A program made the translations under genes and the position numbers. The notes beneath the pieces were generated by a model. That model worked only from the letters and a program-made list of their open reading frames with translations, was not told the DNA's origin and ran no database searches. A stretch of 6,155 bases of DNA. It comes from a virus. Below are positions 1 to 6,155 of the stretch, piece after piece (position 1 is the stretch's first letter; the number at the start of each line of letters is the position of its first letter). The stretch is taken from IMG/VR virus record IMGVR_UViG_3300022758_000051; one strand, written 5' to 3'.

Positions 1-127
1 AAAAAAAATATTTGGAGATACAAAAAAAACTCATACCTTTGCCCATGTGGAAGTTACAACTATTATTAACATTTTAAAATTTATTACAATTATGCAAAAG
101 TTTATTATCTCAGTTAAAGATAAAAAT
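1..127. repeat. Terminal redundancy, copy 1 (identical to 6029-6155); signature of a circular-genome assembly overlap
   Basis: Aligned by eye, base for base: A8-TATTTGGAGATAC-A8-CTCATACCTTTGCCCATGTGGAAGTTACAAC...GTTAAAGATAAAAAT occurs at both window ends. Confidence 0.95.
11..41 (+). promoter_or_regulatory. Bacteroidota-type promoter: -33 TTTG (11-14) and -7 TAnnTTTG (TACCTTTG, 34-41), 19-nt spacer
   Basis: Both consensus elements known for Bacteroides/Flavobacterium sigma-A promoters match exactly, with the spacer length I recall as optimal. It sits in the only large intergenic region, upstream of the whole co-directional gene array. It is flanked by two A8 tracts (1-8 and 22-29) spaced 21 nt apart. 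Confidence 0.5.
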
Positions 128-286
128 ACTGGTCGTGATGTTATTTCGCCTTATATTGTTAATTCTCTCGATGGTCTTGGACATTATTCTGAACGAGTTT
201 CTTCGTTGGGTCTTATTGTTATTGTGGATTCGATTAAAGAAGAAAATAATTTTGTTGAACTTAAAACTCAAAGCAATGAAAAGTAA
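92..286 (+). CDS. Hypothetical protein, 64 aa, no recognisable domain (promoter-proximal first gene)
   Basis: ATG at 92 and TAA at 284-286. It has the strong third-position T bias shared by the recognisable phage genes, and a diverse, globular-looking composition. The ORF track begins at GTG 47, but that lies at or before the predicted transcription start, so ATG 92 is preferred. Confidence 0.6.
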   Translation: MQKFIISVKDKNTGRDVISPYIVNSLDGLGHYSERVSSLGLIVIVDSIKEENNFVELKTQSNEK

Positions 287-359
287 TAATATTTGGAAAA
301 TTGTAATTGGCGCTGTTTCTGCCGCCTTAGGTTATATTCTTAACGCTATTGGATTATGA
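276..359 (+). CDS. 27-aa single-pass membrane peptide (MKSNNIWKIVIGAVSAALGYILNAIGL); candidate holin-like or lysis accessory peptide
   Basis: ATG at 276. The N-terminus is polar and basic (K2, K8), followed by an uninterrupted hydrophobic stretch of about 19 residues. About half of the third codon positions are T. The stop TGA (357-359) overlaps the ATG (356-358) of the peptidase gene as ATGA. The stretch 287-355 is otherwise unassigned in a very compact genome. Confidence 0.4.
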   Translation: MKSNNIWKIVIGAVSAALGYILNAIGL

Positions 360-664
360 ATTATTCTCTTGTTTCTTTTCTTGAGAGTCTGTTATACTTT
401 AATGTTCATTTTACGATAACTAGTGCTCGTCGTACTCCCGAACAGAATAAGGCTTGTAATGGCGTTCCTACATCTCAGCATTTGACTGGAGAGGCTCTTG
501 ATATTAAACCTTATGGTTCTACTACTTATAATCGGTTGCTTGAATTTATTCATAGATATTCGGACGATGTTCATGTGTTTGATCAGCTGATATTGTATCC
601 TACATTTATTCACATTTCATTTGGCGTTCGTAATCGTCATCAAGTGATTGATAAACGTAAATAA
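356..664 (+). CDS. Zinc D,D-/L,D-peptidase of family M15 (Peptidase_M15_3-like), 102 aa; putative endolysin
   Basis: ITSARRTPEQNKACNGVPTSQHLTGEALDI matches the family signature (SgyR..N...GG...SqHl.G.AaDi). The predicted Zn ligands are H42 (nt 479-481), D49 (500-502) and the distal H86 in FIHISF (611-613). The protein is minimal in size, with no signal peptide or cell-wall-binding domain. Confidence 0.8.
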   Translation: MNYSLVSFLESLLYFNVHFTITSARRTPEQNKACNGVPTSQHLTGEALDIKPYGSTTYNRLLEFIHRYSDDVHVFDQLILYPTFIHISFGVRNRHQVIDKRK

Positions 665-2364: not shown

Positions 2365-4116
2365 ATGAGTGATTTTAATCCCTTGGACAGAGCGAAAATT
2401 TCTACCCATCGCTCGTCTTTCGACTTAAGTTCGAAAAAGTTGTTTACCGCTAAAGTCGGTGAAATTCTCCCCTGTTATTGGCAGATTGCTATTCCTGGTA
2501 ATAAGTATCGTATTTCTTCGGATTGGTTTACCCGTACTGTTCCGGTAAATACTGCTGCCTATACCCGTATCAAGGAATATTACGACTTTTACGCTGTGCC
2601 GTTACGTCTGATTTCCCGTGCGCTTCCGCAGGCGTTTACTCAGATGACGGATTATATGACTAGTGCATCTAGTTCTTCTGCGAATGCATCTGCCCTTATT
2701 TCTGTACCTAATGTTTCTCAGAACGCACTTAACCTGTTTCTTCTGACTGCTAATGCCGGTGATCAACCTAACACTCGTGACGATGCTGGCCTTCCTATTG
2801 TCTATGGTTCTTGCAAGTTGCTTGATCTGCTTGGTTATGGTTCTATGATTGCTAGTGATAATAAAGGTAAGGCTGCTATTACTCAAAAGTATCTAGGTGT
2901 TGATGGTCTTGGTGACGCTGCCAACCCTTTGGTTTATCAGTCTTCACAGACAGTTAGTGCTCTTCCATTTCTTGCTTATCAGAAGATTTACTATGATTTC
3001 TTTAGTAATTCTCAATGGGAAAAGCATAAGGCTTATGCTTATAATGTAGACTATTGGTCCGGTGCTGGTAATATTTCATTGGGTACAGATATGGTTCAGC
3101 TTCGTTATGCGAACTATCCTAAGGATTACTTTATGGGAATGCTTCCTAGTTCACAATACGGTTCGGTATCTATTCTTCCTTCGTTGAATCCTCTTCGTGA
3201 TTCTCGTTTGATTACGTTGAGTTCTTCTCCTCACCCTGATGCTTCTTCTTCTGTCACTGTATCTAATCCTGCTGCTGGTAATGACTTGATTTCTTCCTCT
3301 GTCAATTCTACTTCTTCTGTTAGGTATGCGTTTCTCAATAGTGATCTGTCAGCGTTGAGTCTTCGTGCTACTGAATACTTGCAGCGTTGGAAAGAGGTAG
3401 TGCAATTCTCTAGCAAAGATTATTCTGACCAAATGGCTGCTCAGTTCGGTATTAAGGCTCCTGAATATATGGGAAACCATTCGTATTATATTGGTGGTTG
3501 GTCTAGCGTAATTAATATTAATGAAGTTGTTAATACCAACCTTGATACTGATTCTTCTCAGGCTTCTATTGCCGGTAAAGGTGTATCCAGTAATTCAGGC
3601 CATACTCTTACTTATGACTGTGGTGCTGAGCATCAGGTAATTATGTGTGTATATCATGCTGTGCCTATGTTGGACTGGAATCTGACGGGCCAGTCTCCCC
3701 AGTTGACCGTGACCGCTATATCCGACTTTCCGCAGCCTGCGTTTGACCAGCTTGGTATGCAGGCCGTCCCCGCTCTGAATCTTCAGAATAATCCAGGTCG
3801 TAACGTTTCCGGTTCTCTAGGTTACAATCTTCGTTATTGGCAATGGAAGTCTAATATTGATACTGTTCACGCCGGATTCCGTGCTGGTGCTGCTTATCAG
3901 TCTTGGGCTGCTCCTCTTGACGGTTGGCAGGTATTGACTTCCTCCGGTTCTTGGTCTTATCAGTCTATGAAGGTTCGTCCTCAACAGCTGAACTCTATAT
4001 TCGTCCCACAGATTGATGCTACTAACTGTTCGGTTGCATTTGACCAGTTATTGTGTAATGTTAACTTCCAGGTGTATGCTGTTCAGAACTTGGATAGAAA
4101 TGGTTTACCTTATTAA
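2365..4116 (+). CDS. VP1: Major capsid protein (Microviridae VP1 / F-like), 583 aa
   Basis: The N-terminal region (RSSFDLSSKKLFTAKVGEILPCYWQIAIPGNKY...VPVNTAAYTRIKEYYDFYAVPLRLI) has the pattern typical of Microviridae capsid proteins. It is the largest ORF, with a size and position appropriate for VP1. Confidence 0.93.
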   Translation: MSDFNPLDRAKISTHRSSFDLSSKKLFTAKVGEILPCYWQIAIPGNKYRISSDWFTRTVPVNTAAYTRIKEYYDFYAVPLRLISRALPQAFTQMTDYMTSASSSSANASALISVPNVSQNALNLFLLTANAGDQPNTRDDAGLPIVYGSCKLLDLLGYGSMIASDNKGKAAITQKYLGVDGLGDAANPLVYQSSQTVSALPFLAYQKIYYDFFSNSQWEKHKAYAYNVDYWSGAGNISLGTDMVQLRYANYPKDYFMGMLPSSQYGSVSILPSLNPLRDSRLITLSSSPHPDASSSVTVSNPAAGNDLISSSVNSTSSVRYAFLNSDLSALSLRATEYLQRWKEVVQFSSKDYSDQMAAQFGIKAPEYMGNHSYYIGGWSSVININEVVNTNLDTDSSQASIAGKGVSSNSGHTLTYDCGAEHQVIMCVYHAVPMLDWNLTGQSPQLTVTAISDFPQPAFDQLGMQAVPALNLQNNPGRNVSGSLGYNLRYWQWKSNIDTVHAGFRAGAAYQSWAAPLDGWQVLTSSGSWSYQSMKVRPQQLNSIFVPQIDATNCSVAFDQLLCNVNFQVYAVQNLDRNGLPY

Positions 4117-4127
4117 TTTGTATTGTT

Positions 4128-4568
4128 ATGAGAAATTTTGCTTATAAAAATCCGGATTATATTAAAAATGAGGTTGTTCCGGAATTGATTGAAGATCATC
4201 CCTGTTATCAACAGTCTGTATATGATACAGTTATGTACGATGAATCTCCCGATGGTGATTTGATTCAAAATGATATGACGCAGATTCTTCTTAATCAGGA
4301 GAAGTATCGTCGTTTACTTGGTGATATGAATGTTCAGAATATTCTTGCTCAAATGCATCCTACTCAGTCTACTATAATGGATGGTATGACTGATGAAGAA
4401 CGTTTTGATTGTGTTATCTCCCGTCATTGTCAAACTATGTCTGAACGTCAGGCTGTTTTGCAGCAGTTGGCTAGTGAGAAATCTGAGTTGTCGGCTTATG
4501 CCGAGACTATGTTGGCAGAGACTAAGGCAGCGCCGTCTACGGATTCCGCATCTGCCTCTCCTGAGTAA
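4128..4568 (+). CDS. Acidic 146-aa protein; putative internal scaffolding protein (VP3-like) by size, charge and position only
   Basis: A clean ORF with the T-rich third-position bias. It is D/E/Q-rich with an Ala/Ser-rich tail. It lies between the capsid and pilot genes, and its stop overlaps the next start (TAATG at 4566-4570). I recognise no diagnostic motif. Confidence 0.55.
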   Translation: MRNFAYKNPDYIKNEVVPELIEDHPCYQQSVYDTVMYDESPDGDLIQNDMTQILLNQEKYRRLLGDMNVQNILAQMHPTQSTIMDGMTDEERFDCVISRHCQTMSERQAVLQQLASEKSELSAYAETMLAETKAAPSTDSASASPE

Positions 4569-5671
4569 TGGGTTTATTTGACGCTATAGCTTCTTCAGCT
4601 GCTAGCCTTACCGACAATATTGTCGGTATGGTTAATCAGAATCATCAGAATAAGGTTAACCTTCGTATGATGCGTGAACAAAACGCATTTAATGCTGAAC
4701 AGGCTCAAATTCAACGTGATTGGCAGCAACAAATGTGGGGCATGAATAATGCTTATAATTCTCCTAGCGCTATGATTTCTCGTGGCTTGAATCCATTTGT
4801 CCAAGGTTCTGCTGCTATGGCTGGTTCTAAGTCTCCTGCATCTAGCGGAGCTGCTGCTACCGCTGCCCCTGTTCCTAGCATGCAAGCTTATAAACCTAAT
4901 TTTTCCGGTGTGTTTCAATCTCTTGCTTCTCTTGCTCAAGCTAAGGCTTCTGATGCTGCAGCTGGCGAATCAGGCTCTCGTGCTCGTCAGACTGATACGG
5001 TAACCCCTCTTTTGTCGGACTATTATAGAGGTCTTACTAATTGGAAGAATTTGGCTATTGGTTCTTCCGGTTACTGGAATAAGGAAACGGGTCGTATATC
5101 TGCCGCCCTAGATCAGTCTACTGAAGCTCAAAATCTGAAGAATGCACAGTTTGCTGAACGTATATCGGCTGCGCAGGAGACACAAATCTTGCTTAATTCT
5201 GACGCCCAGCGTGTTATAAATAGATATATGGATCAGAGTCAACAGGCTGATTTGTTCATTAAGGCGCAAACGCTAGTCAATCTTCAAGCTCAAGGTGCTC
5301 TTACGGAGAAGCAGATTCAGACTGAAATCCAGCGTGCTATTCTTATTTCTGCTGAATCTTCCGGCAAGAAAATTGATAATCGTGTTGCTTCTGAAACTGC
5401 CGGTTCTCTAATTAAGGCTGCTAATGCTTCCCATGAATTGCAGTATCGTGATAGTATGTATGATTATAAGAATGTCAAGTTCCGTAAGCATACGGAGTAT
5501 AAAACCTCTATGGCTCAGCAAAAAGCCGCCGAATATGGTGCTGAACTGTCTCGTAAACAAGGCCGTACTCATTATTGGGAATCTGTATCACGCGGTCTTG
5601 GTTCTATTGCTTCCGGTTCCGGTAATGTAATTGGAGCTGGTATCCGTCTAGGCTCTAGCAGTAGGAGATAA
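4568..5671 (+). CDS. VP2: Minor capsid / DNA pilot protein (Microviridae VP2 / H-like), 367 aa
   Basis: The N-terminal MGLFDAI... is followed by REQNAFNAEQAQIQRDWQQQMWGMNNAYNSPSAMISRGLNPF, which matches the conserved VP2 block (..A..Q..fqe.Msnt.yq....d...aGLNP). Then come an Ala/Ser-rich linker, a long helical Q/A/E-rich region and a Gly/Ser-rich C-terminus. Confidence 0.85.
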   Translation: MGLFDAIASSAASLTDNIVGMVNQNHQNKVNLRMMREQNAFNAEQAQIQRDWQQQMWGMNNAYNSPSAMISRGLNPFVQGSAAMAGSKSPASSGAAATAAPVPSMQAYKPNFSGVFQSLASLAQAKASDAAAGESGSRARQTDTVTPLLSDYYRGLTNWKNLAIGSSGYWNKETGRISAALDQSTEAQNLKNAQFAERISAAQETQILLNSDAQRVINRYMDQSQQADLFIKAQTLVNLQAQGALTEKQIQTEIQRAILISAESSGKKIDNRVASETAGSLIKAANASHELQYRDSMYDYKNVKFRKHTEYKTSMAQQKAAEYGAELSRKQGRTHYWESVSRGLGSIASGSGNVIGAGIRLGSSSRR

Positions 5672-6028: not shown

Positions 6029-6155
6029 AAAAAAAATATTTGGAGATACAAAAAAAACTCATACCTTTGCCCATGTGGAAGTTACAACTATTATTAACAT
6101 TTTAAAATTTATTACAATTATGCAAAAGTTTATTATCTCAGTTAAAGATAAAAAT
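6029..6155. repeat. Terminal redundancy, copy 2 (identical to 1-127)
   Basis: Same as copy 1. It also duplicates the promoter and the first 36 nt of the 92..286 ORF (ATG at 6120). Confidence 0.95.
6039..6069 (+). promoter_or_regulatory. Same promoter in its native context at the end of the intergenic region (duplicate of 11-41)
   Basis: TTTG at 6039-6042 and TACCTTTG at 6062-6069. Identical by virtue of the terminal overlap. Confidence 0.5.

Follow-up and report, generated by a model that had tools for sequence, protein, structure and literature searches.

The window, a stretch of viral DNA of 6,155 nt, represents a complete circular gut microvirus genome of 6,028 nt, and its host probably belongs to the Bacteroidales. 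Near its left end, an AT-rich block on the plus strand carries two overlapping genes, one for a very short hydrophobic peptide and one for a zinc peptidase, preceded by a third small gene and a putative promoter region:

39 to 93, plus strand: cluster of three sigma-70-like promoter matches that overlap one another, immediately 5' of ORF64
92 to 286, plus strand: ORF64 (ATG at 92), a small soluble conserved protein with no assigned function
276 to 359, plus strand: 27-codon peptide gene (ATG 276-278, stop TGA 357-359), predicted product MKSNNIWKIVIGAVSAALGYILNAIGL
356 to 359, plus strand: ATGA junction, where the peptidase gene starts (ATG) within the last codons of the peptide gene and the latter stops (TGA)
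356 to 664, plus strand: 102-codon gene (start ATG 356-358) for a Peptidase_M15_3/LAS-fold zinc peptidase, a candidate endolysin

A fresh reading of the sequence places the two ORFs, the ATGA junction and the metal-ligand residues H42, D49 and H86 exactly where an initial annotation, made from the letters alone, had put them. ORF64 lies directly upstream of the peptide gene, its last 11 nt overlapping the peptide start, and falls within the same AT-rich gene block (GC 0.30 vs. 0.41 for the genome). Its homologues in the relatives L001-L010 (36-98% identity) are annotated "hypothetical protein", and family profile searches returned no match for it; it is treated here as a neighbor of the putative lysis module. 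A transcript running from the promoter cluster through ORF64, the peptide, the peptidase and VP4 is possible, a match to consensus weakly suggesting it; the cluster was scored against a sigma-70-like consensus, and the likely host group has a different promoter type. The peptide gene occupies a slot of its own, with only 11 nt and 4 nt of overlap with its neighbors, and is not overprinted within another gene.

A short gene under strong constraint

The 27-residue peptide has lysines at positions 2 and 8, followed by a hydrophobic run of 19-22 residues that reaches the C-terminus (mean Kyte-Doolittle value of 2.0 over residues 9-27) with no charge after K8. Hydropathy and charge agree with its original description as one hydrophobic span behind a basic N-terminus: a single transmembrane (TM) segment is predicted, lying N-in/C-out and without any extramembrane domain, and the confinement of the basic residues to the N-terminus is consistent with the positive-inside rule. 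Small and polar residues gather on one face of the predicted helix (shuffle p 0.004-0.06 across family members).

An ORF of this size falls below the reporting length of gene callers, and the peptide in this form is unannotated in the public records of the relatives examined; moreover, in three GenBank entries the peptidase CDS begins farther upstream and runs through it. It might accordingly be a chance ORF, or the upstream part of a frameshift product, an N-terminally anchored SAR-type peptidase. The pattern of variation among relatives largely refutes this reading. The ORF is intact in all 92 evaluable loci, which bears out the expectation that it is conserved in related microviruses, and 83 distinct nucleotide versions of it encode only 21 peptides. 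Entropy at codon positions 1, 2 and 3 is 0.31, 0.02 and 0.84, and pN/pS is 0.115 in the peptide frame, while the two remaining frames give 1.1 and 6.3, so that the coding signature is strong in the peptide frame only. Because it is intact in 92 loci and carries this in-frame signature, the ORF is beyond chance. Measured at the same loci, pN/pS is 0.082 for the peptide and 0.292 for the peptidase, and mean identity among relatives is 95% and 77%, respectively; W7, I11, G12, A13, S15, A16, A17, G19, Y20, L22, N23 and G26 of the peptide are invariant. The peptide gene is thus real, under purifying selection, and more constrained than the peptidase gene.

Fusion of the two products fares no better. 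The Gly and Leu codons just 5' of the junction vary synonymously and therefore leave no conserved slippery site; no conserved slippery heptamer was found, and the two frames are never fused in the 92 relatives, leading us to reject a frameshift product. The extended GenBank entries, 124-aa "peptidase" CDSs of Dulem viruses 226, 238 and 243, were likewise rejected as TM fusions: each starts at an upstream in-frame ATG, in a frame that differs from that of the peptide, and its leader is neither hydrophobic nor conserved.

The ATGA junction itself is kept in nearly all close relatives (the window clade and L001-L010), becomes GTGA in L061 and L078, and is replaced by a short gap between the two genes in the diverged L011-L013. 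The overlap was originally taken as a sign of translational coupling. It is present, yet it is weak evidence by itself because ORF146 and VP2 of the same genome also overlap stop to start, and no significant RNA structure that could serve as a coupling device, or promote a frameshift, was detected at the junction (z = -0.46).

The peptidase and its family

The 102-aa, 11.9-kDa product of the second gene matches Pfam PF08291 with 36.3 bits (E 6.6e-9), above the curated cut-off of 23.2 bits, and PHROG 894 "endolysin" at 1e-15; precomputed assignments to PF08291 exist for all 240 homologues among the matches listed. In a set of 51 diverse sequences, down to 25% identity, H42, D49 and H86 never vary, and the first two, an H-x6-D motif, align one to one with H66 and D73 of the T5 endolysin (2mxz). 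An AF2 model built on the diverse 51-sequence alignment reached a pLDDT of 94.5; it replaced a model from 33 near-identical sequences whose pLDDT was 62.7 and whose Foldseek matches (gyrase, ribosomal proteins) were meaningless. The top PDB matches of the new model are 1lbu, VanY, 2mxz (EndoT5), the RB49 peptidase, LdcB, LysB4 and Shh-N, with VanXY also among the closest solved folds. The best PDB E-value is only 2.8e-3, while matches in BFVD are strong, 49 viral M15 models matching at E<=1e-3. EndoT5 and the Streptomyces albus Zn DD-peptidase (1lbu) share the LAS fold with the modeled enzyme (Foldseek probabilities 0.97 and 1.00; query-normalized TM-scores 0.52 and 0.60) at about 20% identity, the window protein being 35-110 residues shorter. 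On the profile match and the model, the M15-family identity proposed at the outset is established, and the metal ligands are intact.

The domain is incomplete, the match running from position 38 to position 107 of a 108-position profile. Alignment showed that some 30 N-terminal domain residues (the MKYFT..EF.RS.TA...DN motif region) are missing throughout the window clade; therefore, the substrate or activity of the enzyme might differ from that of its relatives. In EndoT5 and 1lbu, an acidic or His residue lying 2-3 residues ahead of the H86 position serves catalysis, and the window protein appears to have no such residue there. The enzyme of the window clade has 102 aa as compared to 124-178 aa in the other microviruses examined, and was first regarded as among the smallest endolysin-like enzymes; it is small but not exceptional, given that gp43 of phage K1E has 114 aa and that viral M15 models of 83-105 aa exist.

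As the initial annotation stated, the peptidase lacks a signal sequence: no 17-residue stretch exceeds a hydropathy of 1.34, and the first 8 residues include neither K nor R. Nor does it carry a SAR segment, since its N-terminus forms helix H3-14 of the folded domain in the model, with no basic n-region. With neither a signal nor a SAR segment of its own, and encoded separately from the peptide in all 92 relatives, it would need a partner that opens the membrane. A stand-alone M15 domain adjoining a conserved TM-peptide gene has the gene context of an endolysin, making the peptidase a candidate endolysin that would act on peptidoglycan in lysis.

The enzyme is already known. In 2012, Roux et al. 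described M15 peptidases in Microviridae and suggested that they act as endolysins (PMC3394797); half of the Alpavirinae peptidases were affiliated to Bacteroidetes, and 5 of 11 peptidase genes adjoined an ORF of unassigned function (PMC3394797). An M15 muralytic enzyme also appears in Kirchberger 2022 (PMC9239249) and in the Occultatumvirinae (PMC11499846), and Gp7 of Ebor degrades peptidoglycan (PMC11980548). The window enzyme resembles the M15_3 peptidases described in these viruses in its Pfam family, proposed endolysin role, location near VP4 and signs of horizontal acquisition and, as in the Alpavirinae set of Roux et al., its nearest cellular homologues are found in Bacteroidales. A muralytic enzyme is thus no novelty in a microvirus, and the occurrence of M15 in the family, once called sporadic, amounts in the window clade to 1,919 database proteins and 339 IMG/VR loci, the gene being routinely annotated "peptidase" in relatives. 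The new part is the peptide. Three of these papers (PMC3394797, PMC9239249, PMC11499846) treat the peptidase alone and describe no conserved ~27-aa TM peptide, and a search of the literature open without subscription found no holin or TM partner in microviruses and no comparable "smallest holin".

Linkage of peptide and peptidase

The peptide was found by tblastn in 35 phage records, in all 35 directly upstream of the peptidase and never without it, and the pair is kept in 92 of 92 relatives. Within the close clade, such co-occurrence could result from inherited gene order alone. However, diverged relatives (VP1 about 35% identical) encode peptidases that are 38-55% identical, one of them a full-length, 162-aa enzyme, and these are preceded by a similarly built peptide of 28-31 aa; the full-length microvirus peptidases of L095 and L196 are paired with the same kind of peptide. 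In porcine microviruses, a similar peptide lies downstream of the peptidase (ISAVCAALSY vs. IGAVSAALGY; shuffle p 0.0005). Peptide and peptidase are therefore linked across lineages. The linkage is not universal: no such peptide was seen in the M15-bearing microviruses L096, L100 and L101, and an HMM of nine peptides, a model whose shortness and hydrophobicity rob it of discriminating power, found no credible relatives in L096-L101.

Relatives without a peptidase carry a small lipoprotein of 60-68 aa in the same slot (70 loci). The signal peptide of this lipoprotein resembles the 27-residue peptide only weakly (p 0.02-0.25), and homology is not claimed. No spanin gene lies beside the cassette, and a lipobox scan of the genome gave one ORF, at 4797-5003, which starts with TTG and is overprinted in VP2; the early remark that no spanin-like ORF is apparent therefore stands.

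Homologous peptidases in tailed phages and prophages adjoin holins, often with the same stop/start overlap. In Siara, an endolysin endopeptidase is followed by two holin/antiholin genes and then by the i-/o-spanin, and on IMG/VR contigs of tailed phages a TM gene overlaps the M15 gene, after which a type-II TM coiled-coil protein is encoded. Among cellular proteins, the nearest homologues (42-46% identity) are encoded in Bacteroidales genomes, directly after proteins with 1-4 TM segments, one of which belongs to Pfam Phage_holin_4_1 (E 8e-8), with two more below threshold; a PHROG search of these upstream TM proteins returned only families without an assigned function. Some of the Bacteroidales homologues are then followed by proteins with a lipobox and a C-terminal TM segment.

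These cassettes also bear on the proposal that the peptidase is a virion-borne entry enzyme and the peptide a neighbor that does something else in the membrane, for instance superinfection exclusion, brought alongside by genome compaction. The M15 fold does occur inside large virion or tail proteins of tailed phages (gp5-like, ~1,000-1,200 aa), and stop/start overlaps are, as noted, frequent in this genome. The small stand-alone homologues, in contrast, are annotated as endolysins in lysis cassettes, and the pair stays linked across gene orders and lineages. Ebor Gp7 was detected in virions, which would favor an entry role, though at trace amounts only, which speaks against it (PMC11980548). 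A T=1 capsid would moreover offer little room for such an enzyme, and the pilot protein VP2, which the window genome encodes, is available for delivery. We regard an entry role as very improbable.

Comparison with known lysis systems

A close parallel is found in phage K1E (Vectrevirus, SP6/K1E-like), whose gp43 is a stand-alone M15 protein annotated as endolysin and 35% identical to the window peptidase over residues 14-87. The adjacent gp44 (49 aa, MKKLFKSKKVVGALVALVIALVSVGLGV...), annotated as holin, resembles the peptide in its Lys-rich N-terminus and single TM segment rich in Gly, Ala, Val and Leu, although the two sequences are at best marginally similar (shuffle p 0.05) and gp44 is a holin by annotation only. 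The arrangement differs in several respects: the K1E "holin" follows the endolysin whereas the window peptide precedes the enzyme, gp44 has a 20-residue acidic periplasmic tail whereas the peptide ends inside the membrane, and K1E encodes an Rz-like lipoprotein (gp45, a spanin) after the holin, a partner that the window cassette lacks.

The peptide has some of the usual attributes of a holin and lacks others. It is a small phage protein predicted to be integral to the membrane, with at least one TM segment, and its gene adjoins that of a candidate endolysin. The hydrophilic, charged C-terminal domain is absent, the hydrophobic run ending at the C-terminus, as is the dual-start motif common in holins. 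Searches of Pfam, PHROG and NCBIfam matched the peptide to no family, curated holin families included, and its diverged relatives gave only E ~0.1 matches to TM segments of one holin and one spanin family. The initial description of a holin/endolysin-style module thus holds for two real, linked genes, with homologues of the peptidase found beside holins, while a holin function of the peptide is our inference. To our knowledge, no holin-like protein shorter than this peptide has been described.

With respect to holin classes, the predicted topology recalls the class III holins, such as T4 T, with their single TM segment and N-in/C-out orientation (PMC9636201); these have a large periplasmic domain, and the window peptide has none. 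A counterpart to the small-residue side of the peptide helix is the glycine-zipper face of TMD2 in the pinholin S68 of phage 21. Pinholins pair with SAR endolysins, and the absence of a SAR segment on the window peptidase led us to reject a pinholin/SAR-endolysin system. Pfam and PHROG searches found no sequence relationship of the peptide to class III holins or pinholins.

A docking or regulatory role was also considered for the peptide, whereby it would tether the peptidase at the inner leaflet for VanX/VanY-like cleavage of precursors (UDP-MurNAc-pentapeptide, lipid I/II) or keep the enzyme inactive until triggered. VanY and VanXY among the closest solved folds, the lack of an export signal and the missing N-terminal residues, which may signal an altered substrate, are compatible with such a role, and a protein-protein interface could account for the close 1:1-style coupling and for how strongly the peptide is conserved. 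The predicted cytoplasmic part of the peptide, however, is only ~8 residues long and leaves nothing more for binding. In addition, the full-length homologues of tailed phages are ordinary endolysins accompanied by holins, and the full-length microvirus enzymes of L095 and L196 have the same kind of peptide. This role is judged improbable.

More serious, though still rather unlikely in our estimation, is the proposal that the peptide kills at the membrane by itself, as either an amurin-like inhibitor of wall synthesis or a TisB/Hok-like depolarizer, with the peptidase only speeding wall breakdown in an envelope that is already failing. In size and design, single-gene lysis proteins (phiX174 E, those of leviviruses) and type I toxins resemble a bare ~27-aa TM helix more than characterized holins do. 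The extreme conservation of the peptide (pN/pS 0.08) could reflect a conserved host target to which it binds, and in relatives that lack any muralytic enzyme a small membrane-targeted protein occupies this slot and seems to suffice. Microviruses classically lyse their hosts by single genes (PMC3394797), and phiX174 E, also a microvirus lysis candidate consisting of about one N-terminal TM helix, is overprinted inside gene D, works by inhibiting MraY and does so without the help of a muralytic enzyme (in part from PMC3394797). The peptide has a slot of its own, always comes with a peptidase in the 35 records and 92 loci above and shows no similarity to E, and we rejected it as an E-type amurin. 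Its linkage to diverged peptidases in differing gene orders likewise argues against a self-sufficient effector, as does the consideration that a peptidase confined to the cytoplasm has no use until the membrane is opened.

A model for two-gene lysis

The data presented above have led us to favor, with about even confidence and with the mechanism included, a model in which positions 276-664 form a two-gene lysis cassette of the holin-endolysin type in a microvirus. A single transcript would serve both genes, and ribosomes that have finished the peptide would move on to the start codon of the peptidase. The peptide would be a bare TM helix, its Lys-bearing N-terminus in the cytoplasm and its C-terminus just at the periplasmic face, which builds up in the inner membrane and oligomerizes via its invariant small/polar face (G12, S15/A16, G19, N23, G26). 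At a threshold, it would permeabilize the membrane and give the signal-less peptidase, a cytoplasmic zinc peptidoglycan peptidase serving as endolysin, access to the wall; opening at a threshold would also time lysis in a virus with little temporal gene control. Membrane insertion, topology, oligomerization, hole formation, the peptidoglycan substrate and the role in lysis are what we infer here. Against the model, we know of no characterized precedent for a single 20-residue helix passing an 11.9-kDa protein, and known single-helix pores such as that of pinholin TMD2 are too narrow.

More tentatively, and with the odds against it, the 26-31-residue peptides may constitute a family of the shortest known holins, each a lone TM helix and yet gating an 11.9-kDa endolysin, in a "lysis slot" upstream of Rep of gut microviruses whose host is probably Bacteroidales. 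This slot would hold alternative cassettes, either the TM peptide with the M15 peptidase or the 60-68-aa lipoprotein alone.

Lysis by microviruses outside the phiX174 group is still largely unexplained. Since 2012, one candidate has been the M15 peptidase, but how a peptidase without a signal would cross the inner membrane had no explanation; the peptide provides a concrete two-gene hypothesis. Were the peptide not a holin, the pair would be an ordinary, known accessory gene and a neighbor with no assigned role. If it is one, it would set a new lower size limit for holins, one helix with no soluble domain, and offer a tractable model of the membrane hole, and, if the reading of a lysis slot is true, the missing lysis genes of very abundant non-phiX174 microviruses would have been supplied. 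A conserved gene missed by gene callers lies against the peptidase gene in thousands of gut microvirus genomes, indicating that ORFs of fewer than 30 codons, which current microvirus annotations omit, can rank among the most constrained genes in these genomes.

Genome organization and host

Bases 1-127 of the window are an exact copy of bases 6029-6155, and this 127-nt terminal repeat indicates that the window represents an entire circular genome (6,028 nt), read past its start. Every recognisable gene lies on the + strand.

Genes of the window
92-286, +: ORF64, 64 aa, no family match
276-359, +: 27-aa peptide
356-664, +: 102-aa peptidase
667-2346, +: VP4 / Rep (PF23343; PHROG 942)
2365-4116, +: VP1 capsid (PF02305; PHROG 514)
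4128-4568, +: ORF146; relatives annotate the same position 'internal scaffolding protein'
4568-5671, +: VP2 pilot protein (PHROG 8689)

In GenBank, the closest matches are to uncultured microviruses sampled from dogs, lemurs, rodents and humans, at no more than 85% nucleotide identity. The host is likely to belong to the Bacteroidales, because no Shine-Dalgarno-like motif precedes any gene of the window, the gene leaders are 72-92% A+T (except that of VP2, 48%) and the closest cellular homologues of the peptidase are nearly all from Bacteroidales genomes. The G+C content of ORF64, the peptide and the peptidase (92-664) is 0.30, 0.32 and 0.35, compared with 0.40-0.44 in the core genes, consistent with an acquired accessory block.

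Other features lie within VP4 and VP2. Three alternative-frame ORFs in VP4 (956-1216, 1283-1834 and 1838-2095, +) are open in 69/70, 68/76 and 54/76 relatives, respectively; synonymous variation in VP4 is 0.71 before position 956 and about 0.49 after it, with an equal drop in the gaps between these ORFs, so that the drop speaks neither for nor against overprinted genes. An imperfect palindrome (21 nt, 86% complementary, centre GGTTAACC) is found at 4643-4672, close to the VP2 start. The sole lipoprotein-type candidate of the genome is a TTG-started 68-codon ORF overprinted in VP2 (4797-5003, +). Its residues 26-29, FLAC, resemble a lipobox; a T-rich frame probably gave rise to this ORF as an artefact.

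The 27-codon ORF as a gene

The coordinates and residues initially assigned to 276-664 were all correct when read from the sequence, and the 27-codon ORF is a genuine, strongly constrained gene. Among the loci gathered by peptidase similarity (13 from GenBank and 80 from IMG/VR), it is intact and directly 5' of the peptidase in every evaluable one. Apparent exceptions are accounted for by a GTG start of the peptide ORF (L051), peptidase initiation at GTG (L061 and L078) or a contig end (L072); in L090 (346-480), about 30 nt are tandemly duplicated at the junction, which leaves the peptide intact and parts it from the peptidase start. The ORF occurs in 83 distinct nucleotide versions encoding 21 peptides, with entropies of 0.31, 0.02 and 0.84 at codon positions 1, 2 and 3, and pN/pS is 0.115 in the peptide frame versus 1.1 and 6.3 in the other two. 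When compared over the same loci, the peptide shows lower pN/pS than the peptidase (0.082 versus 0.292) and higher mean identity (95% versus 77%).

The 26-29-aa form is annotated in none of the fetched GenBank records of relatives that carry it; the diverged 31-aa version in bajarodmic virus 1034 does have an annotation, 'hypothetical protein'. In PP511396, PP511323 and PP511322 (L007, L008 and L009), the deposited start of the peptidase CDS (638-1012 in each) is an in-frame ATG that lies 63 nt too far 5', and the CDS crosses the peptide ORF in another frame. The leader thus added is neither hydrophobic nor conserved, and the extended start is probably a mis-call that hides the small gene.

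The peptidase

An HMM search upheld the M15 assignment: the peptidase scores above the Pfam curated threshold for Peptidase_M15_3 and also matches the PHROG 894 endolysin family. A profile of 13 relatives retrieves EndoT5, the L-alanoyl-D-glutamate peptidase of phage T5 (PDB 2mxz), with H42/D49 aligned with H66/D73 of 2mxz. Ten positions are invariant in an alignment of the window protein with 50 homologues, at identities down to 25% (S23, R26, N31, G36, S40, H42, A47, D49, I79 and H86), and these include all three proposed metal ligands, H42, D49 and H86. Since the Pfam match is confined to positions 38-107 of the 108-position profile and about 30 N-terminal residues of the domain are missing clade-wide in the alignment, the window peptidase is a shortened member of the Peptidase_M15_3 family.

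Structure prediction from a shallow alignment gave a poor model and a meaningless fold search, and was replaced by prediction from a diverse alignment (pLDDT 94.5). The top PDB matches of the resulting model are the Streptomyces Zn DD-peptidase 1lbu, VanY, EndoT5, the RB49 peptidase, LdcB, endolysin LysB4 and the Sonic hedgehog N-domain, a set that identifies the predicted fold as LAS. In addition, 49 viral predicted structures match the model at E <= 1e-3, the named ones all being M15 peptidases.

Linkage of the peptide to the peptidase

A tblastn search with the peptide returned 35 phage records, all microviruses, and the match abuts the peptidase start in 35/35. Peptides of 28-31 aa and the same design also lie 5' of the peptidase in microviruses whose capsids are only about 35% identical (bajarodmic viruses 410, 1134 and 1034, Dulem virus 257 and mar62) and whose peptidases, one of them full-length (162 aa), are 38-55% identical to that of the window. 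In porcine microviruses, including MG945328 and MG945336, a 29-30-aa peptide of the same design (e.g. MTKEQLNKISNALCALISAVCAALSYFFS) is located 3' of the M15 peptidase, where it overlaps the 3' end of that gene or comes after one 45-47-aa ORF.

Porcine 29-30-aa peptide
L196, 5404-5493
L197, 5730-5819
L198, ~698-790
L199, ~701-790
L200, ~701-790

The porcine peptide falls inside a 766-nt region over which MG945328 and MG945336 share 76% identity; Kirchberger et al. present this pair as an example of a recombined 700-nt peptidase region (PMC9239249). Its core, ISAVCAALSY, resembles IGAVSAALGY of the window (shuffle p 0.0005); the remaining comparisons between families gave weaker similarity (p 0.01-0.03). 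No comparable peptide was found in three other M15-bearing microviruses, and the peptide is not universal. A functional link between peptide and peptidase is highly probable.

Peptide design and the ATGA junction

The peptide has two Lys within its first eight residues, followed by a hydrophobic run that continues unbroken to the C-terminus with no further charge. The positive-inside rule predicts a cytoplasmic N-terminus, with a helix just long enough to cross the membrane. The invariant residues G12, S15/A16, G19, N23 and G26 occupy one 100-degree arc of the helical wheel, and small and polar residues cluster modestly above shuffles (p 0.004-0.06 across family members). Such a face would suit helix-helix packing or pore lining, and proves neither.

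The initial annotation proposed translational coupling at the ATGA (356-359). The overlap itself is real, but overlaps are general in this genome and no RNA structure was found at the junction. The ORF146 stop and the VP2 start likewise share one base, and overlaps such as the ATGA serve this genome as a general means of compaction.

Comparison with lysis cassettes

In Bacteroidales genomes, full-length homologues of the peptidase commonly follow 1-4-TM proteins, and the stop and start codons of the two genes often overlap. Among these neighbours is a member of Pfam Phage_holin_4_1 (E 8e-8), and some homologues are followed by a gene whose product has a lipobox and a C-terminal TM. IMG/VR tailed-phage contigs display the order 2-TM protein, overlap, M15, type-II TM coiled-coil protein. 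The curated order in Stenotrophomonas phage Siara is endolysin endopeptidase, two holin/antiholin genes, i-spanin and o-spanin, while phage K1E encodes a 114-aa M15 endolysin and a 49-aa protein annotated as holin, with a Lys-rich N-terminus and one TM, next to an Rz-like spanin. Because homologous peptidases adjoin holin, TM and spanin genes in these genomes, the microvirus pair looks like a miniature of the standard cassette, from which it differs in a membrane component cut down to a helix and in having no spanin.

A 38-aa single-TM ORF (MRTTIRKISYIARQVIAAPALAVGLLCMGIWYIITDKD) abuts the M15 peptidase in three tailed-phage contigs of 42-62 kb (L167, L168 and L174; 1082/1085-1198/1201), with a 162-163-aa type-II TM protein just 5' of it in 2/3; very short TM ORFs beside M15 endolysins thus occur outside microviruses as well.

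Relatives without the peptidase

Two relatives with capsids about 34% identical (L203 and L204) contain no M15 motif in any frame, and encode a 63-67-aa protein in the slot just 5' of Rep. The same small lipoprotein, 60-68 aa in length, is present in 70 IMG/VR loci.

Small lipoprotein precursor, upstream of Rep
L203, 4658-4849
L204, 4429-4632
L205-L274, the IMG/VR loci

It has a basic N-terminus, an h-region and, in 67/67 reconstructed copies, a lipobox Cys, and its mature part, CT(L/M)SLSVSKNNSNSTQ, is highly conserved. An M15 gene was found near it in 0/70 loci, within the locus DNA examined, and the unassigned ORFs tested in the pilot-Rep interval of L203 and L204 matched no wall hydrolase family. 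The complementary distribution of the M15 gene and the small lipoprotein suggests that the slot 5' of Rep may hold alternative lysis cassettes, of which the lipoprotein, reminiscent of colicin-release lipoproteins, is one candidate. In a Bacteroidaceae MAG (L104, 443-535), a 30-codon ORF, MKAISWKKVLEIVVAILTAIIGTLSVQSCL, is located about 430 nt 5' of a full-length M15 peptidase. This ORF shows similarity to the signal peptide of the microvirus lipoprotein (p 0.0005) and also to the 31-aa bajarodmic virus 1034 peptide (p 0.001).

The complementary distribution further indicates that, even with no enzyme, a small membrane-targeted protein may be enough. This keeps alive the alternative that the peptide is a self-sufficient lethal membrane effector of the amurin or toxin type and the peptidase only speeds wall breakdown, a reading we consider rather improbable. 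A holin-like role is the best explanation for the peptide, and we hold it with moderate confidence. Of the holin/endolysin-style module first proposed, the real peptide gene, the M15 peptidase and their linkage stand, but the peptide was placed in no curated family and lacks the charged C-terminal domain that holins typically have. We know of no characterised lone 20-residue helix that passes a folded 12-kDa protein.

Relation to earlier work

A 2012 study described M15_3 peptidases in 11 Microviridae genomes, put them forward as endolysins and noted that five of them adjoin an ORF of unknown identity (PMC3394797). A 2022 taxonomy paper treated them as lysis-associated accessory genes and left out overprinted genes (PMC9239249), and they are present in most Occultatumvirinae (PMC11499846). 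Peptidoglycan degradation has been demonstrated for Gp7, the peptidoglycan hydrolase of microvirus Ebor, whose gene table includes a 45-aa 'membrane protein' without comment (PMC11980548). In the openly accessible literature, no description was found of a conserved membrane peptide coupled to a microvirus peptidase. The microvirus M15 peptidase is known already; its strongly constrained membrane peptide, unannotated in the 26-29-aa form, was not found described. The peptide-peptidase pair is easy to test, and the peptide is possibly the smallest holin.
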